Shown: positions 5,133-60,851, numbered from the stretch's first letter. The stretch: 64,000 bases of DNA from Dehalococcoidia bacterium (GCA_022822375.1 JAJEBU010000126.1:68659-132658), one strand, 5' to 3'. The notes: generated from the letters alone by a model not told the origin. Numbers and translations: made by a program.

Positions 5133-6962
5133 TCAGGCGGGTTCGGCAGCGCGCCGACGCCGCAGGTCGGTCAGCAACGCCCGAATCTCGTCCAGCGATT
5201 TGGCCCCCAGATCGTCGCCGCTGCGGACGCGGACGGCCGCCGCTCGAGCGTCCACCTCGCGATCGCCGATCACGAGCAGATACGGAATCTTGCGCTTTTG
5301 GCCGTTGCGAATCTTTGCCTGCATCCGTTCGTTTCCGTCGTCGACGTCGACCCGCAGCCCGGCAGCCCGCAGGTCAGCGGCCACTTCGCGCGCCCAGTCT
5401 TGGTGACGATCTGCGATCGGGATGCAGCGCGCCTGGACCGGCGCCAGCCAGAGCGGGAAGTTGCCCGCGTAATGCTCGATCAAGATGCCCAGAAATCGCT
5501 CGAACGAGCCGTGAATCGCGCGATGGATGACAACCGGCGTGCGGCGCTCGCCGTCTTCCGCGACGTACACGCACCCCAACCGTTCCGGCTGGATCAGGTC
5601 GAGCTGGATCGTGGACAGCTGCCATTCGCGGCCCATGGCGTCGGAGACGAACAGGTCCGCCTTCGGCCCATAGAAGGCGGCCTCGCCTTCCTGCTCGACA
5701 TAATCAATGCCTGCGGTGTCGAGCGCTGAGCGCAGCGCGGTCACCGCGGTCTGCCATGCGTCAGGATCATCGACGTACTTGCCGCTCTCGCCGGGCAGCG
5801 ACAGCTCGTAGCGGAAGTTCGGCATGCCGTAGGTCTCGAACAGCGTCTGGACCAACTCCAGCACACGCGAGACCTCGTCCGAAATCTGATCAGGCGTGAT
5901 GAAGATGTGGCAGTCGTCCTGGGTCAGCGAGCGCACGCGCGTCAGCCCCGACAACTGGCCCGACTTCTCGTAGCGGTACAGCGTCGTGTACTCCGCATAG
6001 CGCAGTGGAAACTCGCGGTACGAGTGCAGCGTGTGGTTGTACAGCGTCATGTGGACCGGACAGTTCATCGGCTTCAGGTAGTAGGCCTCCGGGTCCTCGT
6101 CGTCGGGGTCTTCGCGCATCGCCGGGTACATGACGTCGGCGTAGTTCTCGAGGTGTCCCGACCGACGGAACAGCTCGCCGCGCGCGACGTGGCCCGTCCA
6201 GACTTCCTGGTAGCCGCGCGCCTCCTGCAGCTCACGGATCAGCGTTTCCATCTCCTGGCGGATGATCGCGCCGTCGGGCAGCAGCAACGGCACGCCCGCG
6301 CCGACGAGCTCGGAGAACGCGAACAGACCCAGGTCGCGGCCGAGCTTGCGGTGATCGCGCCGCTGCGCCTCTTCGATCCGCTGGAAGTGCGCATCGAGCT
6401 CTTCGCGAGTGGCAAACAGCGCACCGTAGACCCGCTGCAGCTGCGGTCGCGTCTCGTCGCCCCGCCAGTACGCGCCGGCGACGCTGGTCAGGCGGAACGG
6501 ACCGATCTGGCGGGTCGACTCCACATGTCCGCCCTGGCAGAGGTCGGTGAACTCCGCGTGTGTACAGATGCCAAGCTGCTCGGCGTCGGCGCTGAACTGG
6601 TCGATCAGTTCCTGCTTGAACGGCTGGTCAGCGAACATCTCACGAGCGTCGGCGACGGGTATCTCGCGCCAGTCGAAGGCGTGATTGCGGCCCATCTCCT
6701 TGCGCATCCGCTTCTGGATTGTGGAGAGGTCCTCCGGCGTCAGCGGACGCGGCAGGTCGAAGTCGTAGTAGAACCCGGTCTCGATCGGCGGACCGATGGC
6801 GAACTTGGCGTCGGGGAACATCTGCAGCACGACCTGGGCCAGGACGTGTGCCGCGGAGTGCCGCATCCGCCGCAGCCACTCGTCGGCGTCGACCTCGTCC
6901 TGCGCGGCGACGCCGCCCGCGCCGACCGCATCGATGGCTCCGTCGAAGGGATCCTCCGCCAT
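5133..6962 (-). CDS. thrS: Threonine--tRNA ligase (609 aa, lacks N-terminal TGS domain; begins at the editing/second-additional domain)
   Basis: RHSAAHVLAQVV (zinc-binding editing-site His pair), class II catalytic core and C-terminal anticodon-binding domain. Positioned upstream of infC as in the conserved thrS-infC-rpmI-rplT cluster. Confidence 0.9.
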   Translation of the reverse strand: MAEDPFDGAIDAVGAGGVAAQDEVDADEWLRRMRHSAAHVLAQVVLQMFPDAKFAIGPPIETGFYYDFDLPRPLTPEDLSTIQKRMRKEMGRNHAFDWREIPVADAREMFADQPFKQELIDQFSADAEQLGICTHAEFTDLCQGGHVESTRQIGPFRLTSVAGAYWRGDETRPQLQRVYGALFATREELDAHFQRIEEAQRRDHRKLGRDLGLFAFSELVGAGVPLLLPDGAIIRQEMETLIRELQEARGYQEVWTGHVARGELFRRSGHLENYADVMYPAMREDPDDEDPEAYYLKPMNCPVHMTLYNHTLHSYREFPLRYAEYTTLYRYEKSGQLSGLTRVRSLTQDDCHIFITPDQISDEVSRVLELVQTLFETYGMPNFRYELSLPGESGKYVDDPDAWQTAVTALRSALDTAGIDYVEQEGEAAFYGPKADLFVSDAMGREWQLSTIQLDLIQPERLGCVYVAEDGERRTPVVIHRAIHGSFERFLGILIEHYAGNFPLWLAPVQARCIPIADRHQDWAREVAADLRAAGLRVDVDDGNERMQAKIRNGQKRKIPYLLVIGDREVDARAAAVRVRSGDDLGAKSLDEIRALLTDLRRRRAAEPA

Positions 6963-47029: not shown

Positions 47030-48415
47030 ATGACGACCAACGCATCCGATCCCGGAGCCGTGGTTCTGCCCGACCTTGGGGAGGACATTGAAGAGGCCGA
47101 TGTGCTCCAGATCTACGTCTCCGTCGGTGACGTGGTCGTGATCGAACAGCCGCTGATCGAGATTGAGACCGAGAAAGCAACGCTGGACCTGCCCTCGCCA
47201 GTTGGCGGAGCGGTGGTTGCCGTACATGTCAGCAACGGCCAGACGATCCGTCCCGGCGATCTTGTGCTCAGCATTGAGGCCAGCGATCCCCGCGCGTCGG
47301 CGGCGCACGAGCCGAGTGCGACTGCATCCGCGCAAGACGAGCCAGCGCTGGCCCCGCCAACTCCCGCTCCCGAAGCCCCGCCAACTCCTCCAGCCCGAGG
47401 GCGCGATGAGCTGCCCTCCGAAGACATTGGCGATCCGCCTGGCGAACTCCCAGCCGGCTTGCCGTCTGCCGCTCCCGCGCCCTTGCTTGACGGCGAGCCT
47501 GAGGGTCGACCTGTCTTCGCCTCGCCCTCGGCCAGACGGTTTGCGCGCGAGATCGGCGTCGACATTCGCGCGGTCGGCGGCAGCGGACCGGGCGGGCGGA
47601 TCGACTTGGACGACATCAAGCGGCACGCTCGAGAGACGCCACGCGAGGCGCCACAGGCGTCGCATTCAGCGCTGGCGCCAGGGCCGCTGCCAGACTTTTC
47701 GGAGTTCGGCGCGATCGAGCGCGTGCCGATGAGCCGGCTGCGCCGCACCATCAAGCGCAACATGGCCCTGTCGTGGCACGAGGCGCCGCATGTGACGCTG
47801 CACCACACCGCTGACGTCACCGAGCTCGAGCAGGTCCGCCACGACTATCGCGATCGCGCCGAGGAGCTGGGCGGACGGCTGACGATCACGGCCATCCTGC
47901 TCAAGATCGCCGCCGCCGCCTTGCAGGCGCACCCGCACGTCAACAGTTCGCTCGACGCTGAGACCGATGAGTTGATTCTCAAGCGCTACTACCACCTCGG
48001 CGTCGCGGTGGACACGCCGCGCGGACTGGTCGTGCCCGTGATCCGCGACGTCGACAGCAAGAACATCATCGAGCTGTCCGTGGAGCTGACGGACATCTCA
48101 GAGCGCGCGCGGTCGGGCGATCTGGAGCTGCAAGACTTTCGCGGCAGCAGCTTCACCGTGACCAACTTGGGTGGATTGGGCACCGGACACTTCACGCCGA
48201 TCATTCACCACCCCAATACGGCGATCCTGGGCATTGGCCGCGCGGAACGTCGGCCTGTCTGGTCAGAAGGTCTCAGCGACTGGGAACCGCGCAGTATTTT
48301 GCCCTTGTCGTTCACGTTCGACCACCGTGTGATCGACGGCGCGGACGGCGCGCGCTTCATGACCTGGATCGCCGACGTGATTCGCCAGCCGCTGGTGCTG
48401 GCGCTGGGCGGCTAA
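47030..48415 (+). CDS. Dihydrolipoamide acyltransferase E2 component
   Basis: N-terminal lipoyl domain (IEIETEKATLDLPSP), peripheral-subunit-binding domain (SPSARRFAREIGVDI), C-terminal catalytic domain with the DHRVIDGA motif. Confidence 0.92.
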   Translation: MTTNASDPGAVVLPDLGEDIEEADVLQIYVSVGDVVVIEQPLIEIETEKATLDLPSPVGGAVVAVHVSNGQTIRPGDLVLSIEASDPRASAAHEPSATASAQDEPALAPPTPAPEAPPTPPARGRDELPSEDIGDPPGELPAGLPSAAPAPLLDGEPEGRPVFASPSARRFAREIGVDIRAVGGSGPGGRIDLDDIKRHARETPREAPQASHSALAPGPLPDFSEFGAIERVPMSRLRRTIKRNMALSWHEAPHVTLHHTADVTELEQVRHDYRDRAEELGGRLTITAILLKIAAAALQAHPHVNSSLDAETDELILKRYYHLGVAVDTPRGLVVPVIRDVDSKNIIELSVELTDISERARSGDLELQDFRGSSFTVTNLGGLGTGHFTPIIHHPNTAILGIGRAERRPVWSEGLSDWEPRSILPLSFTFDHRVIDGADGARFMTWIADVIRQPLVLALGG

Positions 48416-48432
48416 GCGGGGAGGAGGGCGGC

Positions 48433-49863
48433 GTGGTGACAGAGCGCAGCGACGGAGACGCTCATCGGGTGGTCGTGCTCGGCGCTGGACCGGGCGGCTA
48501 TCCCGCGGCCTTCCACGCGGCCGAGCGCGGCTTGGATGTCACGCTCGTCGATACGCGGCCGCAACCCGGCGGCGTCTGCCTGTACGAGGGCTGCATCCCA
48601 TCGAAGGCGCTGCTCCATGTCGGCAAGCTGATCCGCGAAGCACGCGAGGCGTCCGCGTGGGGCGTCAGCTTCGGCGAGCCGACGCTTGACCTCGATCAGC
48701 TGCGCGAGTGGAAGGACGGCGTCGTCAAGAAGATGACGAACGGTCTCGGACTGCTGCGCCGCCAGCGCAGCGTCCAGTATCAACAGGGATACGGACGCAT
48801 CCGCGACGGCAACACCCTCAACATCGAGTCGAACGGCGAAGTCATCCCTCTGGAGTTCGACTCGTTGATCGTGGCCACCGGTTCGACGCCGGCCGCTCCG
48901 CGCGCTCTGCAGCTTGATTCTGAGCGCCTGCTCGACTCCACCACTGCGCTTGAATTGCCCGAGATTCCCGAGACCTTGCTCGTCGTCGGCGGCGGCTACA
49001 TTGGACTCGAACTGGGCACCGTCTATGCCGAGCTGGGTGCGCGGGTGACCGTGGTGGAGACGCTGCCTGAAATCCTCAGCGGCGTCGAGCGCGACCTCGT
49101 CCGCGTGCTGCAGCGCAGCCTGCGTTCGCGGTTCGACGCGATCCACGTCAACGCCTCCGTGCAGTCCCTCGCCGAGGCTGATGACGGCGTCGAAGTCGTC
49201 ATCGCGGACAAGGAAGGCGTCGAGCGCACGGAGGTGTACAGCCACGTCCTGATTGCGACTGGGCGCCGACCGAACAGCGGCGGCCTTGGACTGGAACGCA
49301 CGCAGGCACTGATCGACGAGCGCGGCTTTATCGTGACCGACCAGCAGCGTCGGACAGCGGAATCTTCCATCTTCGCCATCGGAGACGTCGCCGGCGAGCC
49401 GATGCTGGCCCATAAGGCGACGGCTGAGGCGTCGGTGGCCGTTGAAGCGATTCTGGGCGAGCCATCGGCATTCCGTCCGTTGGCCGTGCCTGCTGTCATC
49501 TTCACTGATCCGGAAATCGCGTGGTGCGGACTGAGCCAGTCCGACGCCGCGGCCGTTGGCATGGAGGCGTCGACGGTCAGCTTTCCTTGGGCCGCGCTGG
49601 GCCGTGCAACGGCCTCGGGGCGAAACGACGGCCTGACGCGGTTGGTGATCGAGCACGGCACCGAGCGCATCCTGGGCATGCAAGTCGTAGGAGCAGGTGC
49701 GGGTGAGCTGATCGGCGAGGGTGTGCTGGCGGTCGAGATGGGCGCGCGCGCGTCGGACCTGGCCGAGTCGATCCACGCCCATCCGACGCTGAATGAGTCG
49801 GTGATGGAGGCGGCGCAGGTCTTCTTCGGCCTGAGTCCGCACTATCTGGCCCGCAAGCGCTGA
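48433..49863 (+). CDS. lpd: Dihydrolipoyl dehydrogenase E3
   Basis: FAD motif VLGAGPGGY, redox disulfide GGVCLYEGCIPSK, NAD motif VVGGGYIGLE, C-terminal HAHPTL interface motif. Confidence 0.92.
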   Translation: MVTERSDGDAHRVVVLGAGPGGYPAAFHAAERGLDVTLVDTRPQPGGVCLYEGCIPSKALLHVGKLIREAREASAWGVSFGEPTLDLDQLREWKDGVVKKMTNGLGLLRRQRSVQYQQGYGRIRDGNTLNIESNGEVIPLEFDSLIVATGSTPAAPRALQLDSERLLDSTTALELPEIPETLLVVGGGYIGLELGTVYAELGARVTVVETLPEILSGVERDLVRVLQRSLRSRFDAIHVNASVQSLAEADDGVEVVIADKEGVERTEVYSHVLIATGRRPNSGGLGLERTQALIDERGFIVTDQQRRTAESSIFAIGDVAGEPMLAHKATAEASVAVEAILGEPSAFRPLAVPAVIFTDPEIAWCGLSQSDAAAVGMEASTVSFPWAALGRATASGRNDGLTRLVIEHGTERILGMQVVGAGAGELIGEGVLAVEMGARASDLAESIHAHPTLNESVMEAAQVFFGLSPHYLARKR

Positions 49864-49885
49864 GCCGGCACGAAGTCCAGCGGAC

Positions 49886-50758
49886 ATGCAGATTCAACTC
49901 GGCGGACAGACTCTCGACGCGACTGATCGCTGCCTGGTCATGGGCATCCTCAACGTCGCGACGGACTCGCCGGTCAGCGAGTCCATCGTGGATGTCCAGG
50001 AAGCGCCGCGCCGCGCCGCGGCGCTGCGCGACGCAGGAGCATCGATCATCGACGTGGGCGCGCAGTCCACGCGGACGGGCGCTGCCGCGGTGCCGCCCGA
50101 ACAAGAGATCGCGAGAGTCGTTCCCGTGGTCGAGATGCTGGTCGGCGAAGGGCACCTCGTTTCCGTCGATACCTGGACGGCGCCGGTGGCGCGGGCGGCC
50201 GTGGCGGCGGGCGCCCATCTGATCAACGACATCACCGGTGCCGCGCCAGAGACCGTGGCTGTCGCGGTCGAGACGACCACGCCGATCGCCGTCATGCATA
50301 TGCGAGGCGAGCCGCAGCGTCACCGCGAAGTGACGCACGAGTATGAGGACGTCGCCGGTGAAGTCCGCGATTGGCTCGGACGCAGAGCGGCTGAGATCGA
50401 AGCGGCAGGCGCACCGTCGGTCTGGATCGATCCCGGTTTCCAGTTCGGACGCGGGCTGACCGACAACCTGCGGCTGTTGCTCGATCTGCCGCAGCTGGCG
50501 AGTTTGGGCTATCCCGTCCTCATTTCGGCGTCCCGCAAGGGGTTTCTGGCCGAGATGCTGGGTCACGGCGAGCTGCGCTCGCATGACGCGCACGGCAAGC
50601 CGGGCATGCTCGAGGCGACGATCGCCTTCAACGTCCTGGCGGCCTGGCTCGGAGCACACGTCGTGCGCGTCCACGACGTGGAAGAGGTGGCGTGGGCGCT
50701 GGAGGTATCGGCGGCGGCCAACACGTTGCGCCGCGCCATGAACGATGCAGCCCGCTGA
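49886..50758 (+). CDS. Dihydropteroate synthase-like pterin-binding protein
   Basis: ...LVMGILNVATDSP..., DVGAQSTRTG, and a C-terminal ...RVHDV pattern of DHPS/pterin-binding TIM barrels. No other folate genes adjacent. Confidence 0.7.
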   Translation: MQIQLGGQTLDATDRCLVMGILNVATDSPVSESIVDVQEAPRRAAALRDAGASIIDVGAQSTRTGAAAVPPEQEIARVVPVVEMLVGEGHLVSVDTWTAPVARAAVAAGAHLINDITGAAPETVAVAVETTTPIAVMHMRGEPQRHREVTHEYEDVAGEVRDWLGRRAAEIEAAGAPSVWIDPGFQFGRGLTDNLRLLLDLPQLASLGYPVLISASRKGFLAEMLGHGELRSHDAHGKPGMLEATIAFNVLAAWLGAHVVRVHDVEEVAWALEVSAAANTLRRAMNDAAR

Positions 50759-50814
50759 GCGCGCGATACACTTTGCCTGAGTGTCCCCGCAATCACCCGC
50801 AGGAGAATGGCGTC

Positions 50815-51015
50815 ATGCCCGTCTATACATATCGCTGCGAAGCATGCAGCGAGAACTTCGACAAGATTCGTCCGATGGCCCAGGCGTCGGAGCCGCAAGC
50901 GTGCCCGACGTGCGACGTCGAGGCTGAGCGCGTGATGGCCGGCGTCTTCGAGAACAACTCGACTAAGAACCGCTCGGCAAACTTCCCAAAGCGCAAGCGC
51001 TACACGAACTGGTAA
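50815..51015 (+). CDS. FmdB-family zinc-ribbon protein
   Basis: MPVYTYRCEACSENFDK...QACPTCDV is the FmdB putative-regulatory zinc-ribbon signature. Confidence 0.75.
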   Translation: MPVYTYRCEACSENFDKIRPMAQASEPQACPTCDVEAERVMAGVFENNSTKNRSANFPKRKRYTNW

Positions 51016-51067
51016 CGACCGCCGACCAACAGCGACGTCCGCGTTTGACACGCACTTGGAGAGTGGT

Positions 51068-52165
51068 ATGAGCCAGCGACCGCCCGATCCGATTCCGTTC
51101 CCCAGCGACCGCATCCAGGGCGGCGCACCGCCGCCGCAGGCGCCACAGCCGCCCGCTCAACCGTCGGGGCCCGTGATCTACTCAGCGTCGGGCCAACCGA
51201 TGCGACGGGTCAGGCCGCCGTCTGCGCCGCCGCCTCCAGCCCCGGTACCGCTCAACGCCGCACCTCCGCAGGCGGCCGGCGTTGGCGCCCCCGGCGGTCA
51301 GGAACCGGTCGGCTTGCACGGCCACATTGCCGCCGTGATCGACTCGACCGATGCGGACTTTGAGCGGGATGTGATCCAGCGATCACATGAGATGCCTGTG
51401 ATCGTCGACTGCTGGGCGCCGTGGTGCGGGCCGTGCCGCGTGCTGGGACCGATCCTCGAGAAGCTGGCCTACGAGCGCGACGGCCAGTTGCAGTTGGTCA
51501 AGGTCAACACCGATGAGAACCCGCAAGTCGCGCGGGCGTTGCAAGTGGAGGGCATCCCGGCCGTCTTCGCGTTCGCCGGCGGGCAGCTGGTCAACCGCTT
51601 TGTCGGCGCGTTGCCCGAGGAGCAGGTGCGAGCCTTCTTTGACTCGCTGATTCCCTCTGAAGCCGACATCAAGGCGGCAGAGGGCTACCGCATGATGCAG
51701 GAAAACCAGATTCCGATCGCGCGTCTGCATTTCGAGTCAGCGCTCGACGAGGATCCCAACCACGAGATGGCTGGCGTCGGTCTCGCTGCGATCCTGTCGC
51801 GTCTGGGCGAGACGGAGCGCGCCGCCGAGCTCGCTCGCCGCTGGCCCAACCATCCGTTGAGCAAGAGCGTGCTCACGTCAATGGAGCTCGCGGCGGCGCT
51901 GGACGGTCAGGACGCCGGCGCAGTCCGCGCGGCTGCGGCGTCTCACCCGACCGACGCGATGAGCCGCTATCGGCATGGCTGTCTGCTGGCCCTGGAGGGC
52001 CAGATGATGCAGGCGTTGGACGAGATGCTGGAGTCGGTGCGGCTGGATAAATCGGCCGGGGACGAGGCGGCGCGCAAGACGCTGCTCGGCATGTTCGCCA
52101 TGCTCGGCGAGAATGAGCCGGTCGTCGCGGAGTACCGCAAACGGCTGGGTCAGCTGCTTTTCTAG
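51068..52165 (+). CDS. Thioredoxin-domain protein with C-terminal TPR-like domain (YbbN/CnoX-like) and Pro-rich N-terminal extension
   Basis: Trx active site WAPWCGPC, then an alpha-helical TPR-like C-terminus. The ~90-aa N-terminus is Pro/Ala-rich. Confidence 0.82.
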   Translation: MSQRPPDPIPFPSDRIQGGAPPPQAPQPPAQPSGPVIYSASGQPMRRVRPPSAPPPPAPVPLNAAPPQAAGVGAPGGQEPVGLHGHIAAVIDSTDADFERDVIQRSHEMPVIVDCWAPWCGPCRVLGPILEKLAYERDGQLQLVKVNTDENPQVARALQVEGIPAVFAFAGGQLVNRFVGALPEEQVRAFFDSLIPSEADIKAAEGYRMMQENQIPIARLHFESALDEDPNHEMAGVGLAAILSRLGETERAAELARRWPNHPLSKSVLTSMELAAALDGQDAGAVRAAAASHPTDAMSRYRHGCLLALEGQMMQALDEMLESVRLDKSAGDEAARKTLLGMFAMLGENEPVVAEYRKRLGQLLF

Positions 52166-52187: not shown

Positions 52188-52514
52188 CTACTCCTCGTCG
52201 TCGTCCTTCGTGTACCACTCGCGTGTGCGCCACCATGGCATGGGACGGATGTCGTCTTCTGCGGTTGCGCGGTTGCGGACTGCCCAGACGAACACCCAGA
52301 GCGTGACTCCGACGAACACGAACGGGATGAAGAGCGAAGTCGCCAGCGTCTCGTCAGAGACGTGCAGGTCGTCGCCGTCATCTTCGCCGCCGGCATTCGC
52401 AACCTGCGGCTGATCCGTCAACGCGTACTCGCCCGCCGCGGCCGCGCCGAGCGTCAGCGCGCACAGGCCGCTCACCACCATCAGCGCCAGCAGGAAACGT
52501 CGAAGCTGGGACAT
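52188..52514 (-). CDS. small membrane protein with acidic termini, hypothetical
   Basis: MSQLRRFLLALMVVSGLCALTLG... and a second TM (LFIPFVFVGVTLWVFVWAV), ending in a DDDEE tail. Divergent from the Trx-fusion gene at 52589. Confidence 0.45.
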   Translation of the reverse strand: MSQLRRFLLALMVVSGLCALTLGAAAAGEYALTDQPQVANAGGEDDGDDLHVSDETLATSLFIPFVFVGVTLWVFVWAVRNRATAEDDIRPMPWWRTREWYTKDDDEE

Positions 52515-52588
52515 TCGATCACACCCCTCAACTGTTCTCGCCATAGTGTCGCGCGATGCGCCGACAGCGTCAACGCTAGAATAAGCGC

Positions 52589-54166
52589 ATGCATCCTCCC
52601 ACGACATTCGCATTGCGCGATGCTGACGGCCGCGAGCGGCAGTTCCCGCCCGATGGTCCGGTGTTGCTCGCTCTGGTCAAAGAAGATTGCGACACCTGCA
52701 ATCTGACGCTGCCGCTGCTCGAGAAGGTCCATCAGGCCACCGAAGACGGCCTGGACGTGTGGGTCGCGGTGCAGAAGACCGACGACATCCCCGTCCTGAA
52801 GGAGCGGCACGGCCTGACCATGCCGCTGCTTGACGACGACGCGCTGGACCTGTCCTACGAGACCGACATCGACACCGTGCCGACGCTCTTCCTCTATGAC
52901 GAGCAGCAGAACTGCACGCTGCAGACCTTCGGCTTCGACCGTCACGAGTGGCGGGAGATCGCCGCGGAGTCAATGACGCTCGCCGGCCGTCCTGATGGCG
53001 ACACGCAGATCGAATGGGACGCCCTGCCTGTGCAGCGTCCAGGCTGCGGCGCTCGCAACTACGAGCCGGGCGTCTACGAGCGTCTGCAAGCGTTGAAGAG
53101 CGGCGATCTGCTCTCGCGCCTGGTCGATCTGGCCGCGTCCGACGACATCTACGAGTTTATGTACGAGCAGGGCTACACCGACGGCTTCCCGGTCGTACCG
53201 CCCACACGGGAGCGCGTCTGGAAGATGCTGCAAGGCACGCAGCGCGACCCGCAGGACGAAGTCGCCGTGATGCCGCCCAACCTGGCGCCGATCACGGTCG
53301 AGAAGATCGCCATCAACGCCGTCATGGCCGGCGCGAAGCCCGAGTATCTGCCCTCGATCATCACCCTCGTCGAGATCGCCTGCACAGAGACGTTCAACAT
53401 TCACGGCGTGCTCGCGACGACGATGGGCGCGACGCCGGTCGGCATCTTCAACGGTCCGATCCGTGACAGGATCGGGATGAACTACCTGCACGGCGCATTG
53501 GGCTCGGGCAATCGGGCCAACGCGTCGATTGGCCGCGCGCTGCGTCTCTGTGCGCGCAATGTCGGCGGCAGCCTGCCAGGCGGAACCGACCGCGCCACTC
53601 AGGGAGGCCCGCATCGCCTGACGATGAACTTTGCCGAGAATGAGGCTGCGAGCCCATGGGCATCGCTCGCGGTCGAGCGCGGTTTCGAGCCGACCGACGA
53701 TGTGGCCACCCTGATGGCGATGTCGGGCGGTCCCGCGACCGTCGCCGACGAACGAGCCCGCGACGGACGCGCCTTGGCCGGAACGCTGGCCGCGTCGATG
53801 TCTTGCATGCAAGATCCCAAATCGCCCATGGTCGACACATTGGTCGTGTTGTCGCCCGATCACGCGGGCATCTTCGGACGTTCAGGCTGGTCGAAAGATG
53901 ATGTGCGCGAGTGCATCATCGAGGAAACGTCGATCCCGCTGCACATGCGCCTGCGCTCGGACGACGCCGGTTGCGGTCTGCCGCCGAGCATCGTCGAACA
54001 GTTCGGCGGCGAGGCGGCGCTCGACATGCCGATCGCCAAGTTCCGCGACAAATCCAACATCATCCTCGTCGTCGCCGGTTCCTCGGCGGCGAAGTTCTCG
54101 ACCATTCTGGGCGGCTGGGCCGGCGGCGCATACTCGATGCCGGCGAGCAGCAAGATCGGCGTCTGA
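52589..54166 (+). CDS. Fusion protein: N-terminal thioredoxin-fold (TlpA/AhpC-like, CxxC = CDTC) domain + C-terminal uncharacterised ~370-aa domain X (paralog of 54813..55961)
   Basis: N-terminal ...RQFPPDGPVLLALVKEDCDTCNLTLPLLEKV... is a redox-active Trx-fold. The C-terminal domain carries DGFPVVPPTRERV, ITVEKIAINAVMAGAKPEY, GSGNRANASIGRALRL and NVGGSLPG motifs shared with the paralog. Confidence 0.8.
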   Translation: MHPPTTFALRDADGRERQFPPDGPVLLALVKEDCDTCNLTLPLLEKVHQATEDGLDVWVAVQKTDDIPVLKERHGLTMPLLDDDALDLSYETDIDTVPTLFLYDEQQNCTLQTFGFDRHEWREIAAESMTLAGRPDGDTQIEWDALPVQRPGCGARNYEPGVYERLQALKSGDLLSRLVDLAASDDIYEFMYEQGYTDGFPVVPPTRERVWKMLQGTQRDPQDEVAVMPPNLAPITVEKIAINAVMAGAKPEYLPSIITLVEIACTETFNIHGVLATTMGATPVGIFNGPIRDRIGMNYLHGALGSGNRANASIGRALRLCARNVGGSLPGGTDRATQGGPHRLTMNFAENEAASPWASLAVERGFEPTDDVATLMAMSGGPATVADERARDGRALAGTLAASMSCMQDPKSPMVDTLVVLSPDHAGIFGRSGWSKDDVRECIIEETSIPLHMRLRSDDAGCGLPPSIVEQFGGEAALDMPIAKFRDKSNIILVVAGSSAAKFSTILGGWAGGAYSMPASSKIGV

Positions 54167-54228
54167 CGCCGCAACACCGCGCAATGCGCGCCGCGACCCT
54201 GCAGTCGGCGCGTTGATGGAGAGGTCCC

Positions 54229-54759
54229 ATGGTTACGCAGATCCTCGACCCGACCGACGAACGAGTGCCGATCAAGCGATCCCTCACGCCGCGCCCAGAA
54301 GCGCTGCATGGGACGATCGCCCTGCTCGACATCTCCAAGCCGCGTGGCGACAAGTTCCTCGACCGACTCGAACAGCTGCTGCACGAGCGGGCGCCGGGCG
54401 TCGAGACCCGCCGCTTCATGAAGCCGACCGTCGCCAAGCCGGCGCCCGAGCCGATCAAACAAGCGATCCTGGAGGAATGCGACTTCGTCATCGAAGCGCT
54501 GGCTGATTGAGGATCCTGCACGACGTGCAGTGTGCACGACACCGTCTTCTTCGAACTGCAGGGCAAGCCCTCGGTCTTCGTCGCCACCTCTGAGTTCATC
54601 AAGGCCGCCAGCCACCAGGCCGAGCGGCTCGGACTCGAAGAGGTGCGGCGCGTCTTCATTCCGCATCCGATGCAGGACCGCACCGATGCAGAGATGCATG
54701 AACATGCCGAGCGCTTCGTAGACGAGATCCTCGACACCTTGATGGCGCCCGTCGAGTAA
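54229..54759 (+). CDS. UGSC-family selenoprotein (176 aa) with in-frame TGA = selenocysteine at 54508..54510
   Basis: ORFs 54229..54510 and 54532..54759 are in the same frame (both = 1 mod 3) and separated by one TGA. Read-through gives ...FVIEALAD-U-GSCTTCSVHDTVFFELQGKPSVF..., i.e. the eponymous U-G-S-C motif immediately followed by a second Cys pair (UxxCxxC). Coding-like composition continues past the TGA, and a hairpin follows it. Confidence 0.8.
54516..54538 (+). promoter_or_regulatory. Candidate bacterial SECIS hairpin(s) downstream of the Sec-UGA
   Basis: Overlapping perfect palindromes: CTGCAC-GAC-GTGCAG (54516-54530, begins 6 nt after UGA) and CGTGCA-GUG-UGCACG (54524-54538, begins 14 nt after UGA, apical loop GUG containing G and U as in bSECIS). 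Confidence 0.55.
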
Positions 54760-54812
54760 CGGCGAACGGCCTGCCGCCGTTCGAGCCTCCCGATCTGGAC
54801 AGAGGTCAGCCT

Positions 54813-55961
54813 GTGGCGTCCCAGCAATCGAGTGACTATGCGGCGAGCTCGCCGACGGTGGCCAACCCGCATGCGCGACTGATCGACATCGCCGACCACG
54901 ACGATGTCCATGAGTTCATGTTCGACCAGGGCATCACCGACGGTCTGCCGGTGGTGCCGCCGACGCGCGAACGGGTCGACCGCATGCTTGCGGCGTCGCC
55001 CGAGCATTGGAACGATCCCAGCGCAGAGATCGCGAAGCTGCCACCGAACTATGGACCGCTCACGGTGGAGAAGGCTGCCATCAACGCCGTCATGGCGGGC
55101 TGTGCGCCGTCCTTCTTCCCGACCGTGCTGGCGTCGATCGAGGCAGCGGCCGATCCGCGCTTTCCACTTCACGGTTCGATCGCCACGACGGCAGGCCTGG
55201 CCCCGTTGATGCTCGTCAACGGACCCGTCCGCGAGCAGATTGGGATGAACTGGGGCCTCAACGCGCTTGGCCAGGGCAACCGCGCCAACTCGACACTGGG
55301 GCGCGCGTTGCGGCTGATGCTGCGCAACGTCGGCGGCGCGGTGCCCGGCGAGATCGAGCAAGCCATCCAGGGCGGCGGACACAAGTGGACCCTCTCCTAC
55401 GCCGAAGACGAGGACACATCGCCGTGGGACCCCTTCCACGTCGAGCACGGCTGGAATCCTGATGACAGCGTGGTCTCGCTGATGGCCACGACCGGCGGGC
55501 CGCGCGTCTGCATCGATCAGACCAGCCGCACGGCGCGGGCGCTGACCGGATCCATCGCCATGGCATTTCAACAGGTGGTCAAGCCGCGCGGACAGGTCTC
55601 GCCGACAATGTTCGTCGTCTCGCCCGAGCACGCTGACGTCTACCGTGCGGATGGTTGGACCAAAGAGAACATCCGCGAGGCGATCATGGAGTTCACTGCT
55701 CTGCCGCTGCGCGATCGCCTGGCCTCACCAACACTGGGCGGCGGTATCAACGAGTACGCGCCACAGCAGTACGGCCTGACGGAAGAGCAGCTCGACCTCC
55801 CGATGTCTAAAGTGGCGCATCCGTCGTTCATCCAAATCACCGTCGCCGGCAGCCATGCGGGGAAATGGACGAGCATCTACCAGGGCATCTTCGGCGACGG
55901 CGATCCGACGCAGCCGCCGCCCGGCCCGTTCGTCCCGCCCGCTGCCCGTGTGCGCTCCTGA
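54813..55961 (+). CDS. Uncharacterised domain-X protein (382 aa), paralog of the C-terminal domain of 52589..54166
   Basis: Shares FMFDQGITDGLPVVPPTRERVDRML, LTVEKAAINAVMAGCAPSF, GQGNRANSTLGRALRLMLRNVGGAVPG and the C-terminal ...ITVAGSHAGKW block with the upstream fusion protein. GTG start. Confidence 0.78.
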   Translation: MASQQSSDYAASSPTVANPHARLIDIADHDDVHEFMFDQGITDGLPVVPPTRERVDRMLAASPEHWNDPSAEIAKLPPNYGPLTVEKAAINAVMAGCAPSFFPTVLASIEAAADPRFPLHGSIATTAGLAPLMLVNGPVREQIGMNWGLNALGQGNRANSTLGRALRLMLRNVGGAVPGEIEQAIQGGGHKWTLSYAEDEDTSPWDPFHVEHGWNPDDSVVSLMATTGGPRVCIDQTSRTARALTGSIAMAFQQVVKPRGQVSPTMFVVSPEHADVYRADGWTKENIREAIMEFTALPLRDRLASPTLGGGINEYAPQQYGLTEEQLDLPMSKVAHPSFIQITVAGSHAGKWTSIYQGIFGDGDPTQPPPGPFVPPAARVRS

Positions 55962-55977
55962 GCGGCGCGGGACTGGC

Positions 55978-56619
55978 ATGGCCGCAACGTCGCTGGAACC
56001 GGACCGGCTGCAGGGACTGCGAACTCATCTCGCAACGCATCCTCGGGTCACGATTGAGGTCGGCGAACAGATCGTCTCGCTGGCCTCGCGGCACGGATTG
56101 TTCTCAGCTCGATCGTTGGATGACGGCACGGCCATGATGCTGCGCGAGCTGGAGTCGCTACCGGCAGCGGCGCGCGTACTCGATCTGGGCTGCGGATACG
56201 GCGCGCTCGGCATTTCTCTCGCGCTGCGCTGGCCCGACGCCGACGTGATGATGGTCGATGTGGACCTCCGCGCCATCGAGGCGGCTCGGGAGAATGTGGA
56301 CCGACTCGGTCTGCAACACACCGCCGTACTGCCGTCCGACGGCGTGAGCGCCGTTCGAGCACAGGCGCAGTTCGACCTCGTCGTCTCCAATCTGCCCGCG
56401 CAAGCCGGCAACGATGCGCTGGATGAGTTGCTGCTGGGCGGGCACGACGTCTTGGCGGCGGACGGCCTGCTCGTGGTGGTGGCGGTCAACGGCTTGCGGA
56501 CGTATCTGCAACGCCGATTGGCGGACATCTTCGGCAAGCGGCAGACATCGAAAGTGCGGCAAGGTCAGCGGCATACGGTGTTGCAAGCCGTACGGTCGGC
56601 GGCGGGGACATCGCCATGA
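55978..56619 (+). CDS. Class I SAM-dependent methyltransferase (small-domain RsmC/RlmG-like)
   Basis: SAM motif I VLDLGCGYGALGISLA, motif IV DLVVSNLP (N6-adenine/N2-guanine MTase-like NPPY variant). Confidence 0.75.
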   Translation: MAATSLEPDRLQGLRTHLATHPRVTIEVGEQIVSLASRHGLFSARSLDDGTAMMLRELESLPAAARVLDLGCGYGALGISLALRWPDADVMMVDVDLRAIEAARENVDRLGLQHTAVLPSDGVSAVRAQAQFDLVVSNLPAQAGNDALDELLLGGHDVLAADGLLVVVAVNGLRTYLQRRLADIFGKRQTSKVRQGQRHTVLQAVRSAAGTSP

Positions 56620-58007
56620 GTTTGCCGCAAGCGCCGAGCCGTCCGGGAATGACCGAGCCGCTGCGGTTGCGTGAGTTCCGGCTGCTGCTGATCGGATTCA
56701 TCCTCGGTCAATCGATGATGCCGCTGCAGTTCGTCACATCGATTGCCTGGATTCAGCACGTGGCTGACGACGAGGTCGAGATCATCATGGTCGGCGCGAT
56801 CGGCACGATTCGCGGACTGGGAATGATCGGTTTCGGATTGTTCGGCGGCGCGCTGGCCGACCGCTTTGACCGTCGCCGCCTGCTAATGGTGACGCAGACG
56901 CTCGCGTTCGCGTGCAACATTGGCATTGCCGTCGTGATGTGGACGGGCGCCGGCGGCACACTCGAGATTGGCATCTTCTTCCTGCTCACGATCATCGCGT
57001 CGTCGGCGCACGCCATCGACGGGCCCACGCGCCAGGCGATCACGCCCGAGATTCTGGGCCCGCGACTGACCCCGGCCGGGATTGCGCTGAACTCAGCCGC
57101 GATGCAGCTGGCCATGCCCTTCTCCATCTTCGCGTCAGGCCTGCTGATTGACTCGCTCGGACACGGCACGGTGTTCGCCATTTCCTCGTTCGGACACCTG
57201 GGCGAGGTGCTGGTCTTGGCGTTGATGTCATACCGCACCGTGTTCTCGGCCGAGCACATGAAGAGCCTCGCTGAGCGCGGACAGGGTCCGCGTCAGGCGT
57301 TGTCTGACATCGCCGCTGGTCTGCGCTACGCGCGATCCAAGCCGGTCGTGTTGTGGACCGTGTTGATCGTCGTGCTGATGATGTCGCTGATCATGCCGCC
57401 AACGGGCACGCTCGGTCCGCAGTGGGTGACGACCGTGGTGGGAGCGACGTGGTCGGAGTTCAGCTTTATCGCTGTGTTCTGGGGCGGCGGCGCGATGATC
57501 GCCTCGCTGATCCTCGTGCGCTTCTCCTGGATCGAGCGCAAGGGACTGCTGACCGCCGCCGGCGTGATCGTCATGGCGCTGGGCTTTGTCGTGTTCACCA
57601 ATCCGCCGACGACGCTCAACGCGATGGCGGGCAACTTCCTGCTCGGCGTGGGCATGTCGATCGCGATGGTCAGCGCGAACTCGACGCTCGCGCACGAAAC
57701 GCCCAACGAGATGCGCGGGCGGATCATGGGCCTGATCTTCCTCGGCATGGGGATCGCGCAGGCGGTTGGTCTGCCGCTCGGCGCGCTCGCGCAGTGGCTG
57801 ACGATGGAGACGCTGTTCCCACCGTTGTCCTACGCCGTGCTGGCGACGCTGGCGGCGATCATCGTCGTGCGACCGGTGATTCTGCGGGCGCGCGTGCCTC
57901 AGCATCCGTTGGTTGCGACGGCGGCGGCGCCGAGTGCCACCGTGCGGCGCGTCCTTAACGGCGCTGCGAGAAGGATCGTCCGCACCGCCCCCCAGCACGC
58001 GCGATGA
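56616..58007 (+). CDS. MFS transporter
   Basis: 12-TM pattern, MFS motif GALADRFDRRRLL. Overlaps the methyltransferase stop (ATGA). Confidence 0.85.
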   Translation: MSLPQAPSRPGMTEPLRLREFRLLLIGFILGQSMMPLQFVTSIAWIQHVADDEVEIIMVGAIGTIRGLGMIGFGLFGGALADRFDRRRLLMVTQTLAFACNIGIAVVMWTGAGGTLEIGIFFLLTIIASSAHAIDGPTRQAITPEILGPRLTPAGIALNSAAMQLAMPFSIFASGLLIDSLGHGTVFAISSFGHLGEVLVLALMSYRTVFSAEHMKSLAERGQGPRQALSDIAAGLRYARSKPVVLWTVLIVVLMMSLIMPPTGTLGPQWVTTVVGATWSEFSFIAVFWGGGAMIASLILVRFSWIERKGLLTAAGVIVMALGFVVFTNPPTTLNAMAGNFLLGVGMSIAMVSANSTLAHETPNEMRGRIMGLIFLGMGIAQAVGLPLGALAQWLTMETLFPPLSYAVLATLAAIIVVRPVILRARVPQHPLVATAAAPSATVRRVLNGAARRIVRTAPQHAR

Positions 58008-58072
58008 CGCGGATCGCCTGCACGCTGCGTTAGCATCAAACTGACTAACTGAAGCCCAATGGAGAGCCTGCC

Positions 58073-59239
58073 ATGGAGTATCGATTCAGCGACAAAGCGC
58101 GCGCGTTTGAGTCGGAAGTGAACGAATTCCTCGACAGCGAATGGACGCCGGAGTTGCGCGCGACGATCGGCGATCCCACGACCGACACGATGTCCGAAGA
58201 GCGCGGGTTTCGCAGACTGTTGGCGGATCGCGGCTGGTTGACGATGTCATGGCCGGCCGAGTACGGGGGGCAGGAGCGCTCGCTGGAAGAGCAGTACCTG
58301 TTCTGGGAGGCGATGAACTACGCGGGTGCGCCGCAGGCGACCGTGGCGACCCAGCAAGTGGGGCCGACGTTGATGCGCTTCGGCACGGAGGAGCAGCAGG
58401 AACGCTTCCTGCCGCCGATCGCGCGCGGCGAGGTGGAGTTTGCCTTGGGCTACACCGAGCCGGACGCAGGCTCCGACCTGGCGTCGCTGCAGTTGCGAGC
58501 GATCAAGGATGGCGACGACTACATCCTCAACGGCATCAAGCGGTTCACATCCGGCGCTCACCGCAGCGAGTACGTCTGGCTGGCGACACGGACCGATCCG
58601 GACGCGCCGAAGCACCGCGGCGTATCGATGATGCTGGTCGACATGCAGTCGCCCGGCATCACCGTCAAGCCGCTCTGGACGATGGCCGGCTACCGCACGA
58701 ACGAGGTCTACTTCGAGGACGTGCGAGTGCCCACCAACGTGCTCGTCGGCGAAGAGAATCGGGGCTGGTACTACGCCGCGCATGCGCTCGATCGCGAACG
58801 GATCTCGATCTTCACGGTGTCGTCTGTGCGAGCGGTCTACGACCGCTTGTACGATTGGGCATCCTCGGACACGCCGATGGGGCGCCCCATCGACGACGCG
58901 GGCATTCGCGGCACGTTTGCGGACTTCAAGGTCCAGCTGGAGGTGCTGCAGCACCTGTCCTACCGCATCCTGGACATGCTGAAGCGTGACGAATCGCCAA
59001 ACCACGAGGCGAGCCAGGTGAAGATCTTCTCGACCGAGATGATGCAGCGCTTGCAGAACTTCTCGTTGCACGCGATGGGGCTCTATGGGCAGCTGAACAG
59101 CAACGACCAGCGCGCGCCGATCGGTGGTTCCGCCGAGAACGGGTACCTGGCAGCGGTGATGCCCACCTTCGGCGCCGGCGGCAATGAACTGCAACGCAAC
59201 ATTATCGCCCAGCGAGGCTTCGGCTTCCCGCGTGCGTAA
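58073..59239 (+). CDS. Acyl-CoA dehydrogenase family protein
   Basis: ACAD N-terminal/middle/C-terminal domains (YTEPDAGSDLASL, catalytic region IFSTEMMQR...GGNELQRNIIAQ). Confidence 0.85.
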   Translation: MEYRFSDKARAFESEVNEFLDSEWTPELRATIGDPTTDTMSEERGFRRLLADRGWLTMSWPAEYGGQERSLEEQYLFWEAMNYAGAPQATVATQQVGPTLMRFGTEEQQERFLPPIARGEVEFALGYTEPDAGSDLASLQLRAIKDGDDYILNGIKRFTSGAHRSEYVWLATRTDPDAPKHRGVSMMLVDMQSPGITVKPLWTMAGYRTNEVYFEDVRVPTNVLVGEENRGWYYAAHALDRERISIFTVSSVRAVYDRLYDWASSDTPMGRPIDDAGIRGTFADFKVQLEVLQHLSYRILDMLKRDESPNHEASQVKIFSTEMMQRLQNFSLHAMGLYGQLNSNDQRAPIGGSAENGYLAAVMPTFGAGGNELQRNIIAQRGFGFPRA

Positions 59240-59242
59240 CGA

Positions 59243-59920
59243 CTAGCCGTCGGAGCTGCGCGACGCCAACCAGCGGCGCGTGTTCGGCGCGATCTCCGCT
59301 GGCAGCTGGGGCAGCGTCTCTTCCAGCCAGCGCAAGTCGGCCGGGGTGTCGAGGTCGAAGGCCCAGACATCGATCTGCGCCTCGCGGAAGGGCACGCCGG
59401 CTTCTCCCGCGGCCGCGGCGGACTGGGCGTGCGCTCGCGCGGACGATGGTCCGAACTGCGGCGCGATCACCTCAGGCGGGCGCAGCAGCAGCCCGTTCGT
59501 CCCGCCATTGTGTGCCGGTGCGACGACTACCGCCGGTCCGACGGGCGCAGAGGCGACCAGCAGGTCAACGGAGTCGGGCGTGATCAGCGGGACATCGGCG
59601 GGGACAATCAGCAGCGCATCCGCATCGGAGAACTCGGACTGTGCGCAGGCGACAGCTCGGTTGTAGCCAAGTCTGAGCGCGGTTTGGTCGAGGAAGTCGA
59701 CGCCGAGACGGGAGGCCTCAACCGCCGCGGCGACGTCGCGCGAGGCGATCACGACGCGGTCCACCTGCTCGGCTGATGTGAGTGCGTCGACCACGTCGTC
59801 CAGCATGGCGCGGACCAGCGTGTTGCGATCATCTACGTCGAGCAGCGCCGCCAACCGCCGTTTCCCGGCGGGCAAGCCGCGGACCGGCACGACAGCGATC
59901 AACCCACCGTCAGACGGCAT
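59243..59920 (-). CDS. cofC: 2-phospho-L-lactate guanylyltransferase (coenzyme F420 biosynthesis)
   Basis: IAVVPVRGLPAGKRRL...MLDDVVDAL is the CofC/FbiD family signature. Confidence 0.8.
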   Translation of the reverse strand: MPSDGGLIAVVPVRGLPAGKRRLAALLDVDDRNTLVRAMLDDVVDALTSAEQVDRVVIASRDVAAAVEASRLGVDFLDQTALRLGYNRAVACAQSEFSDADALLIVPADVPLITPDSVDLLVASAPVGPAVVVAPAHNGGTNGLLLRPPEVIAPQFGPSSARAHAQSAAAAGEAGVPFREAQIDVWAFDLDTPADLRWLEETLPQLPAEIAPNTRRWLASRSSDG

Positions 59921-60851
59921 GTCCGGCCGCCTCCAGCACTCCGCGCGCCAGCGCCGTCTTGGCGGCCGCGTCGACCATCAGGGTCGGCAGCACGTCGACG
60001 TGCAGGCCGGTCTCCGCTTCGATCTCGCCGGCCAACGCGGCATCTGCCTGATCGAGGACGAACGTGTCGGCGATTTCGGCGTAGAGTCTGGCCACGCCGA
60101 GCGCAGACACGTCGTGCCCGAGCGAGGCCATGATGTCTGCCGCCGGACCCTTCACTGCCTGGCCGCCGATGATTGGGCTGATCGCGACGACGGGGGCGCG
60201 TGCCTTGATCACCGTTTCCCGCATGGTTCTCACGCTCAGGATTGGCTCGATGCTGAGGAATGGGTTGGACGGTGCGATCACGATGACGTCAGCCTCGAGC
60301 AGGGCGAGGATCGCTTTGGGCAACGGCTGCGCGGTCTCGACGCCGTCGAATCGGAGAGATCGCACGGTGTCGGCGGCGCGGCGGCGCACAAAGTAGTCCT
60401 GAAAGGAGAACTCCCCCGCGTCGGTGTTGACCAGCGTGCGCAGGCGGTCGTCGGTCGCGGGCAAGATGGTCAGTGCGAGACCAGCGCGTCTGGCCAGATC
60501 ACGAGTGATGGTGGAGAGCGGATTGCCCTGTTCGAGCCAGTGGGAACGGAACAGGTGCGTGGCCAGATCGAGGTCGCCGATCATGAACCAGTCCGGCCCG
60601 CCGAGATCGGAGAGGCGGTCGAGCGTGCGCCGCGTCTCACCGCGCAGCCCCCAGCCGGTCTCGGGATTGACCATGTCGGCGAGCGTGTAGATGACCGTGT
60701 CGATGTCGGGCGAGATGTGCAGTCCGGCCCACTCCATATCATCGCCGACGTTGACGATGGCCGTGACGTCTCGCGGCGGCAGCACGCGGACGAGACCGTC
60801 CAGGAAGCGAGCCGCTCCGACGCCGCCGGCGAGGACCGCTGCGCGGGTCAT
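59910..60851 (-). CDS. cofD: 2-phospho-L-lactate transferase (coenzyme F420 biosynthesis)
   Basis: AVLAGGVGAARFLDGL...IVNVGDD...SNPFLSIEPIL are CofD/FbiA family motifs. Overlaps the cofC start. Confidence 0.85.
   Translation of the reverse strand: MTRAAVLAGGVGAARFLDGLVRVLPPRDVTAIVNVGDDMEWAGLHISPDIDTVIYTLADMVNPETGWGLRGETRRTLDRLSDLGGPDWFMIGDLDLATHLFRSHWLEQGNPLSTITRDLARRAGLALTILPATDDRLRTLVNTDAGEFSFQDYFVRRRAADTVRSLRFDGVETAQPLPKAILALLEADVIVIAPSNPFLSIEPILSVRTMRETVIKARAPVVAISPIIGGQAVKGPAADIMASLGHDVSALGVARLYAEIADTFVLDQADAALAGEIEAETGLHVDVLPTLMVDAAAKTALARGVLEAAGHAV

Follow-up and report, generated by a model that had tools for sequence, protein, structure and literature searches.

The UGSC selenoprotein and its partner domain X in a Dehalococcoidia bacterium and its relatives: a candidate selenocysteine-dependent, thioredoxin-driven reductase

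Introduction

The closest described counterparts of the proteins treated here are the glycine and D-proline reductases of Stickland fermenters. In these systems (GrdB, GrdF or GrdH with GrdE, GrdG or GrdI; PrdB with PrdA) a small or medium-sized selenocysteine (Sec) subunit is combined with a larger substrate-binding subunit, and electrons are supplied by the thioredoxin (Trx) system. As of a 2024 paper, no structure of Prd had been reported. The motif U-x-x-C-x-x-C has been described for GrdB, GrdF and GrdH (PMC6778437). In a stretch of 64,000 nucleotides (nt) from a Dehalococcoidia bacterium (GCA_022822375.1, JAJEBU010000126.1:68659-132658), hereafter called the window, a gene for a small selenoprotein of the UGSC family with this motif lies between two genes whose products share a domain that is here named X. 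The first of these products also carries a thioredoxin-fold domain and is named Trx-X. The genes are interpreted, with moderate confidence, as encoding a reductase that depends on Sec, is driven by thioredoxin and has a large subunit of new fold.

A relay of three Sec or Cys residues that is reduced by thioredoxin operates in MsrA and in ArsC-type reductases. UGSC itself is known as an abundant aquatic selenoprotein of uncharacterised function (PMC2398784, PMC1976440, PMC9312934, PMC13188914). Since 2007-2008 it has been counted among the selenoproteins that are most abundant in metagenomes from ocean and fresh water, and reviews up to 2026 list it without a function (PMC2398784, PMC13188914). 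The earlier literature ('UGSC-containing protein' of Zhang and Gladyshev) terms it uncharacterised and Trx-like. A supplementary figure of 2008 (Zhang and Gladyshev) mentions a 'UGSC/Unknown_1' fusion, in which Unknown_1 may correspond to X. No paper was found that uses the family name or that reports the X partner, a thioredoxin link or homology to selenoprotein B. The UGSC family is already known; its near-obligate pairing with X, the link to Trx and TrxB and the homology to selenoprotein B do not appear in the literature searched.

Results

Organization of the locus

The genes for Trx-X, UGSC and the stand-alone X protein all lie on the + strand, and the open reading frame (ORF) calls leave gaps of 62 nt and 53 nt between them. 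The Trx-X gene (52589..54166, +) encodes 525 amino acids (aa) with an N-terminal thioredoxin-fold domain, a linker bearing a cysteine and a C-terminal X domain. The UGSC gene (54229..54759, +) reads through a single in-frame TGA (54508..54510, +), taken as selenocysteine U94, and yields a protein of 176 aa, including Sec94, that contains D-U-G-S-C-T-T-C. The stand-alone X gene (54813..55961, +) starts with GTG, and its product of 382 aa has neither a Trx domain nor a conserved cysteine. Trx-X and the stand-alone X were called identically on the near-identical contig L001. A preliminary description of this DNA had held the two large proteins to be paralogues, and this was confirmed by BLASTP: residues 176-516 of Trx-X (X domain copy 1, 53114..54136, +) and residues 21-361 of the stand-alone protein (copy 2) were 46% identical over 341 aa (E = 8e-110). 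The five sequence blocks quoted in that description were all present in the comparison of both proteins. No extra copy of X or UGSC occurred elsewhere in the 64-kb window, and no tRNA-Sec was found in it.

Conservation of the X-UGSC pair

Related loci were collected in two sets. The genome set comprised 79 loci found via X, from Chloroflexota, Alpha- and Gammaproteobacteria, Binatia, Acidobacteriota, Actinomycetota, Myxococcota and others. The metagenome set comprised 80 loci found via UGSC, 62 of them with at least 600 nt of upstream sequence. In about 72 of the 79 genome loci, from at least eight phyla, UGSC followed Trx-X at a distance of 10-150 nt. X was located directly upstream of UGSC in 56 of the 62 metagenome loci and not so in the other six. 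The two domains were also found in one polypeptide. Among 148 family representatives there were 38 direct fusions in both orders (24 UGSC-X and 14 X-UGSC) and one Trx-X-UGSC protein; the X-UGSC fusions had been split by the gene callers exactly at the Sec codon. A continuous UGSC-X frame of 536 aa with a single TGA was present at L166:883-2493. The frequency of such covalent fusions points to a stable complex.

The preliminary description had pictured UGSC as a small carrier between two large proteins and had raised the question whether Trx-X and X always co-occur, which they do not. Within the Trx-X clade, a second X downstream of UGSC was limited to the Dehalococcoidia relatives L001-L005 and L057, and none of the 80 UGSC-anchored metagenome loci had a downstream X. 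As most genomes have a single X and 38 of 148 representatives are fusions, UGSC is unlikely to act as such a carrier. What is conserved is the pair of X and UGSC, with one X that may or may not be joined to Trx, and not the set of three genes.

X-UGSC-X arrangements with a Cys-type UGSC were found at L171:6953-9652 (Halalkalicoccus jeotgali plasmid 2, X copies 66% identical) and at L178:4206-7050 (Halosolutus gelatinilyticus plasmid, X copies 60% identical); these haloarchaeal duplications arose independently. Six true X-X tandems were recognized among about ten multi-X gene calls of the 148 representatives. The tandem fusions and the X-UGSC-X layouts suggest that X works as a dimer, and in the window organism Trx-X and X probably form a heterodimer. 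Tandem fusions of two complete X domains (about 710-790 aa) are encoded at L082:122-2491 and at L163:6001-8154, beside a family-5 ATP-binding cassette (ABC) solute-binding protein. No UGSC gene was seen in the available stretches around these two tandems; X may also have a function independent of UGSC.

Several loci departed from the common layout in other ways. The UGSC gene of L131 sits between a 403-aa ORF and a secA-like gene, the latter called by reading translations. In a related Dehalococcoidia genome, an 81-aa ORF resembling a HigA/XRE-type antitoxin (L004:7121-7366, -) lies between Trx-X and UGSC and widens the gap to about 730 nt, compared with 62 nt in the window. The Trx-X gene at L057:5448-6508 is frameshifted near 5669 and is either a pseudogene or the result of a long-read assembly error.

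UGSC and its selenocysteine

The UGSC protein of the window matched Pfam family PF24696 with 151.8 bits (cut-off 25, E = 2.7e-44) and NCBIfam NF041046 with 154.2 bits (cut-off 125, E = 2.2e-45), and the middle gene encodes a full member of the family, as had been proposed. Its redox motif U94-G-S-C97-T-T-C100 (54508..54528, +), a UxxCxxC motif shared with GrdB, GrdF and GrdH, is nearly invariant across phyla. TGA occupied the codon of the U in 71 of 72 genome loci and in all 80 metagenome loci (151 of 152), and in related loci the protein sequence was conserved on both sides of it. Searches of the PDB with the UGSC sequence and profile gave nothing meaningful.

A SECIS-like hairpin (SECIS, selenocysteine insertion sequence) was obtained at 54524..54538 (+) as an RNAalifold consensus. 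It starts 16 nt past the start of the UGA. With the U of UGA taken as the first nucleotide, its six pairs run from C17-G31 to A22-U26 and enclose the loop G23-U24-N25. All six pairs were kept in 20 diverse sequences, one of them alternating between G-C and G-U; since no compensatory change occurred, it is conservation that supports the hairpin. The fold of the single window sequence was no better than that of shuffled sequences (z = -0.44). Synonymous sites were frozen at 54517-54540, where Cys100 was always encoded by TGC and Ser101 always by AGT in 57 loci. As this stretch coincides with the hairpin, part of the protein motif C-S-x-H is probably under constraint from the RNA structure. The hairpin may be comparable to the SECIS of Escherichia coli fdhF.

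In 17-20 loci, selA-selB was found immediately upstream on the same strand (among them L015, L016, L018, L019, L021, L029, L030, L033, L037, L042, L044, L047 and, from Sulfitobacter sp. M05, L045), and in six an Ndh-SelD fusion gene was found downstream. A selB gene was also near the pair on plasmid pFER4 of Paracoccus ferrooxidans (L177). The Sec machinery and the X/UGSC operon form a compact island in those loci, and the genomes concerned seem to use this machinery in large part for the operon, which looks like one of its main clients. Judging from the retained TGA and the adjacent selA-selB, Sec appears to be essential to the system.

Likeness of UGSC to selenoprotein B

The comparison of the locus with Grd and Prd in the preliminary description proved apt and is backed by the homology of UGSC, but the subunit resembled is the catalytic selenoprotein B or PrdB, not the carrier selenoprotein A. 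The statement made there that no sequence similarity to Grd or Prd proteins exists was wrong for UGSC. Eleven of 17 UGSC members matched the NCBIfam models of GrdF (best E = 8.9e-6) and GrdB (1.6e-4) over the Sec-containing stretch, six of 17 matched the general model of glycine/betaine/sarcosine/D-proline selenoprotein B, and four of 17 matched GrdH. Residues 78-175 of the window protein aligned to positions 331-428 of selenoprotein B models of about 431-435 positions. The scores of the window protein against models of the TIGR01917, NF040794 and NF040795 type were 13.5-14.3 bits with cut-offs of 602-800, and UGSC scored 11 bits against TIGR01918, with a cut-off of 65; no reported score reached its cut-off (bit scores are not listed for six matching A3 members). 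UGSC is accordingly a remote homologue of the Sec-bearing C-terminal 95 or so residues of selenoprotein B (GrdB, GrdF, GrdH and PrdB), not a member of that family.

No GrdA match at E <= 1 was obtained among the families matched by UGSC members. Among the genes called within about 6 kb on either side (L001) and in the other contexts inspected, neither a GrdA carrier nor GrdC or GrdD was encoded, a trait shared with Prd. The X domain gave no match at E <= 1 to the pyruvoyl proproteins PrdA/GrdE (Pfam Gly_reductase) in a Pfam scan of 64 members, and no Gly_reductase partner was matched by Pfam among the L001 genes.

Domain X

The preliminary description could not assign X to a family, and this held throughout. 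The X proteins of the window and 64 diverse members gave no consistent Pfam or NCBIfam match, and PDB searches with X by sequence (phmmer) and by profile (hmmsearch) gave nothing below E = 0.1. The family itself is large: at E <= 1e-3 a profile search retrieved 6,452 clusters (50% identity), 1,950 of them even at E <= 1e-30, and at least 593 matching stretches in a one-genome-per-species collection encoded an X relative. The nearest relatives of the stand-alone X outside its clade were Trx-X proteins, at about 47% identity.

A single-sequence AlphaFold model of X was discarded because of its low confidence (predicted local distance difference test, pLDDT, 33.6). The model of the stand-alone X made from a 64-sequence alignment reached a pLDDT of 91.9 and a predicted template modelling score (pTM) of 0.90. 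A Foldseek comparison of this model with the PDB had been suggested as a check, and it gave no match at E <= 1e-3. The best match was class I fumarate hydratase (E = 5e-3, template modelling score, TM, 0.23-0.25), followed by cyanuric acid hydrolase and PrpD/IRG1. Kinship of X with the Toblerone fold or with fumarate hydratase was rejected at a TM of about 0.2. X is a family outside Pfam and NCBIfam without a structural match in the PDB.

The residues D43, T84, N146, R157, N159, R164, E198, W205, H273 and K/R284 of X were conserved across all architectures and persisted even in X-X tandems without UGSC. The domain has conserved glycine-rich loops, one of which, G-x-G-x-R-A-N-x-x-x-G-R, is placed by the model at the N-terminus of a helix, and no conserved cysteine at all. 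This pattern suggests a polar, probably anion-binding pocket and is unlike that of a site for metal or redox chemistry. In its own right, X has the look of an enzyme or ligand-binding domain. Self-cleavage at T84 of the pyruvoyl or N-terminal-nucleophile kind was considered and set aside as having a low probability: the column contains T, S or C, and the modelled T84 ends a strand at the N-terminus of a helix and does not lie in a cleavable loop.

The thioredoxin-fold module and thioredoxin genes

The N-terminal domain of Trx-X (52589..52963, +, about aa 1-125) was identified by profile and NCBIfam matches. With profile A6 it matched the solved structures of thioredoxin, StoA and ResA over positions 4-116 with E values of 2e-7 to 4e-6. 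The NCBIfam match to ResA was weak (16.1 bits with a cut-off of 170), and homologues of the domain carry PF00578/PF08534 (AhpC-TSA/Redoxin). In 75 Trx-X proteins from many phyla, the two cysteines of the CxxC motif C34-D-T-C37 (52688..52699, +) were 99% and 97% conserved, the thioredoxin-type cis-proline V97-P98 was at least 95% conserved, and a third cysteine, C153 in the motif R-P-G-C-G of the linker (53045..53047, +), was 99% conserved; all three cysteines were invariant in alignment A6. The linker segment with C153 is missing from stand-alone X proteins. By these features the module is a genuine thioredoxin fold, in agreement with the preliminary description. The Trx-X architecture was found in 23 of the 148 family representatives and in most of the 79 genome loci.

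ResA, StoA, TlpA and cytoplasmic thioredoxin have the fold, the CxxC motif and the cis-proline in common with Trx-X. The N-terminus of Trx-X, MHPPTTFALRDADGRERQF, contains no hydrophobic segment. As read from the sequence, Trx-X differs from ResA and TlpA in having neither a signal peptide nor a membrane anchor; the module also scores far below the ResA cut-off and is fused to X via a linker with an extra invariant cysteine.

Thioredoxin genes also occurred as separate genes beside the pair. In Arthrobacter sp. ERGS1:01 (L172) the order was trxB-trxA-X-UGSC, with the X start overlapping the trxA stop; the separate trxA is the unfused counterpart of the Trx-X fusion. This order parallels the grd operons of Eubacterium acidaminophilum and Clostridium, in which trxB-trxA is found. 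Roseovarius sp. THAF8 (L167) had the order tripartite ATP-independent periplasmic (TRAP) transporter, CaiB-BaiF coenzyme A (CoA)-transferase, LysR, X, UGSC, trxB, and Variovorax sp. SRS16 (L170) the order LysR, trxB, TctC, short-chain dehydrogenase/reductase (SDR), X, UGSC-like. The presence of trxB in the cluster makes NADPH the likely electron source.

Gene neighbourhoods and hosts

Genes for CoA-transferase III (CaiB/BaiF), acyl-CoA dehydrogenase, enoyl-CoA hydratase, MaoC, CoA-ester lyase, SDR, TauD and TRAP/TctC carboxylate transporters recurred as neighbours in unrelated lineages. There was no conserved third gene beside the pair, and selB was the only frequent co-directional neighbour. 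The hosts were mostly aerobic heterotrophs and haloarchaea. Cultivable hosts of the Sec type were Paracoccus ferrooxidans/versutus and Sulfitobacter sp. M05, and Hyphomonas neptunium is likewise a Sec-type host; those of the Cys type with trxB in the cluster were Arthrobacter sp. ERGS1:01, Roseovarius sp. THAF8 and Variovorax sp. SRS16.

Two further contexts were recorded. On a plasmid of Haladaptatus halobius (L176:3738-8242), a CoA transferase, a CoA ester lyase, X and a TRAP binding protein are encoded without an adjacent UGSC, in an arrangement resembling a dicarboxylate-CoA catabolic cluster. On plasmids of Vibrio europaeus (L168:6395-8080) and Sporomusa termitida (L169:6329-8053), fusion proteins of 561 and 574 aa consist of a weak UGSC-like domain followed by X, and in both of these unrelated bacteria the fusion gene adjoins aconitase X with its DUF126 small subunit.

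Surroundings of the locus in the window

A 141-aa ORF with a hydrophobic segment (52188..52613, -) lies between a thioredoxin-tetratricopeptide repeat (Trx-TPR) gene and Trx-X and overlaps the start of Trx-X by 25 nt; it had a homologue in six of six clade loci and no Pfam match. The upstream synteny of the clade (within 47030..52165) comprised a 2-oxoacid dehydrogenase E2, a dihydrolipoamide dehydrogenase-like flavoprotein, a pterin-binding protein, a Zn-ribbon protein and the thioredoxin-TPR protein. Downstream (within 55855..60851) a small-domain methyltransferase, a major facilitator superfamily transporter, an acyl-CoA dehydrogenase and CofC/CofD were encoded. The longest ORF for the methyltransferase shares about 107 nt with the end of X, but the gene call on L001 has a later start. 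A promoter and terminator scan of the window gave only a terminator-like site 3' of the upstream Trx-TPR gene.

Discussion

The balance of the evidence tips towards the three genes encoding one cytoplasmic thioredoxin-driven (seleno)cysteine reductase, and the redox system proposed in the preliminary description is upheld as an interpretation. X/UGSC is best read as a Prd-like reductase in which X stands in place of the pyruvoyl subunit. X would be the large, non-redox subunit and would bind the substrate in its polar pocket rich in Arg, Asn, Asp, Glu and His. UGSC, the small subunit homologous to PrdB and GrdB, would dock on X and bring in Sec94, which would attack the bound substrate. Cys97 would then resolve the selenium adduct with formation of an Se-S bond, giving a two-electron reductive step as in glycine and D-proline reductase. 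The Se-S bond would be reduced again via Cys100, the linker cysteine C153 and the CxxC motif of the fused thioredoxin domain, and the latter would take electrons from NADPH via thioredoxin reductase. The scheme builds on what was observed, namely the order of the genes, their fusions, the conserved residues, the distant kinship between UGSC and selenoprotein B and the neighbouring trxB and trxA; we infer the docking, the order of the thiol/selenol exchanges and the type of substrate. The best lead to the substrate is an organic acid, perhaps as a CoA thioester; as genes of the acyl-CoA kind are common in these genomes and none of the neighbours is fixed, they serve only as a lead to a substrate of this kind.

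The small Sec subunit beside a larger substrate-binding subunit and the supply of electrons by the thioredoxin system are features that X/UGSC would share with Prd and Grd. Unlike in these systems, the thioredoxin of the window is fused to the large subunit, and unlike the Stickland fermenters most hosts are aerobic heterotrophs or haloarchaea. MsrA, MsrB and Trx-type ArsC follow the relay logic proposed here: a Cys or Sec acts as nucleophile, one or two cysteines resolve the product, and thioredoxin recycles the enzyme. In contrast to these enzymes, the relay would involve two or three polypeptides, with the substrate pocket on a separate new domain, and there is no kinship in sequence or fold.

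Several observations weigh against this interpretation. About 10% of the UGSC genes had no X nearby within the available sequence (L131:4979-5494, L086, L090, L091, L092 and L097), and their partner is either encoded elsewhere or dispensable. Conversely, Trx-X had no UGSC within 8 kb in L007, L038, L049, L051 and L054. Some UGSC-like domains fused to X are without any redox cysteine: in the UGSC-X fusion representatives P0202, P0257, P0168 and P0188 one, two or all redox cysteines are lost (for example GWSGVYTIW and AEIGGSLFG). Where the cysteines are absent, the domain is not redox-active, and it can thus persist without redox chemistry. UGSC resembles selenoprotein B weakly, at 13-30 bits, which falls far short of the curated cut-offs, and over only about 95 residues. 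As X has no pyruvoyl-type cysteine, the substrate-binding mode of Grd and Prd cannot be transferred to it. Finally, the neighbouring acyl-CoA genes are of kinds that are common in these lineages and may not be specific to the pair.

An antioxidant or repair function is an unlikely alternative. The system would in that case be a Sec-based peroxidase, sulfoxide reductase or disulfide reductase recycled by Trx, and X would be a scaffold or recognition domain. The relay of MsrA and ArsC-type reductases offers a precedent, the hosts are largely aerobes, and homologues of the N-terminal domain match AhpC-TSA/Redoxin in Pfam. Most marine bacterial selenoproteins are, moreover, thiol-oxidoreductase-like (PMC2398784). 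Against such a role stands X, a large, conserved domain the polar pocket of which is kept even without UGSC, and the homology of UGSC points instead to enzymes of reductive C-X bond cleavage. The pair is surrounded by genes for catabolism, for transporters and for LysR/IclR regulators and not by stress genes; in the annotated contexts examined, no OxyR or PerR regulator and no canonical Prx or Msr stood beside the pair.

That X is a self-sufficient non-redox enzyme, with UGSC and thioredoxin regulating or protecting it, is improbable; a hydratase, an isomerase or a lyase that uses di- or tricarboxylates or their CoA esters would be an example. X-X tandems without UGSC beside ABC binding proteins, the cluster of CoA-transferase, CoA-ester lyase and X, the fused UGSC-like domains lacking all cysteines, the aconitase X genes adjoining two fusion genes and the weak fold matches to class I fumarate hydratase, PrpD/IRG1 and cyanuric acid hydrolase would all suit such an enzyme. 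The retention of Sec in 151 of 152 loci and the co-located Sec machinery do not, and a dedicated trxB/trxA together with three invariant cysteines in Trx-X would be costly for mere regulation.

The model in which UGSC acts like selenoprotein A, as a carrier shuttling between the large substrate-specific proteins Trx-X and X, fits the data least among the rivals and is quite improbable. The X paralogues on both sides of UGSC, in the window and on two haloarchaeal plasmids, and the entry of electrons through thioredoxin as in glycine reductase are what this model would lead one to expect. Nevertheless, UGSC resembles selenoprotein B and not A, with no GrdA match at E <= 1, most loci have a single X, the frequent X/UGSC fusions point to a fixed complex, and no acceptor like GrdC or GrdD is encoded nearby. 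It is very improbable that the pair serves selenium metabolism, for instance selenium reduction or delivery to SelD, as the neighbouring selA-selB, Ndh-SelD and (in Paracoccus) selB genes might suggest, because Cys-type pairs occur beside trxB, CoA-transferase and transporter genes in organisms and plasmids without nearby Sec genes, because Sec machinery kept only for its own helper would be circular, and because a role of UGSC as the chief selenoprotein client in those genomes would account for the linkage more simply.

Returning to the thioredoxin-driven reductase, a more specific version of it is put forward tentatively. X and UGSC might represent a new class of thioredoxin-dependent, Sec-based reductases of aerobic bacteria and haloarchaea that uses the Sec chemistry of the Stickland reductases, with a domain of new fold replacing the pyruvoyl subunit. 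The substrate would be an organic acid or an acyl-CoA, and cysteine would resolve a selenoether or selenenyl adduct; examples of possible reactions are the reduction of an activated double bond and the cleavage of a C-S, C-N or C-O bond beside a carboxyl group or thioester.

For UGSC, the analysis adds a near-obligate partner (X), an electron supply consisting of thioredoxin and thioredoxin reductase, and an evolutionary link to the selenoprotein B of Stickland fermentation. The cultivable hosts, which include Sec-type and Cys-type bacteria and haloarchaea with X-UGSC-X, make the function testable. If the reductase model is true, Sec-dependent reductive chemistry, which has long been tied to anaerobic amino-acid fermentation, would be widespread in aerobic heterotrophs, and a selenoprotein that ranks with the most abundant ones in aquatic metagenomes would have a function. 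It would also explain why some bacteria seem to retain the Sec machinery largely for the X/UGSC operon.

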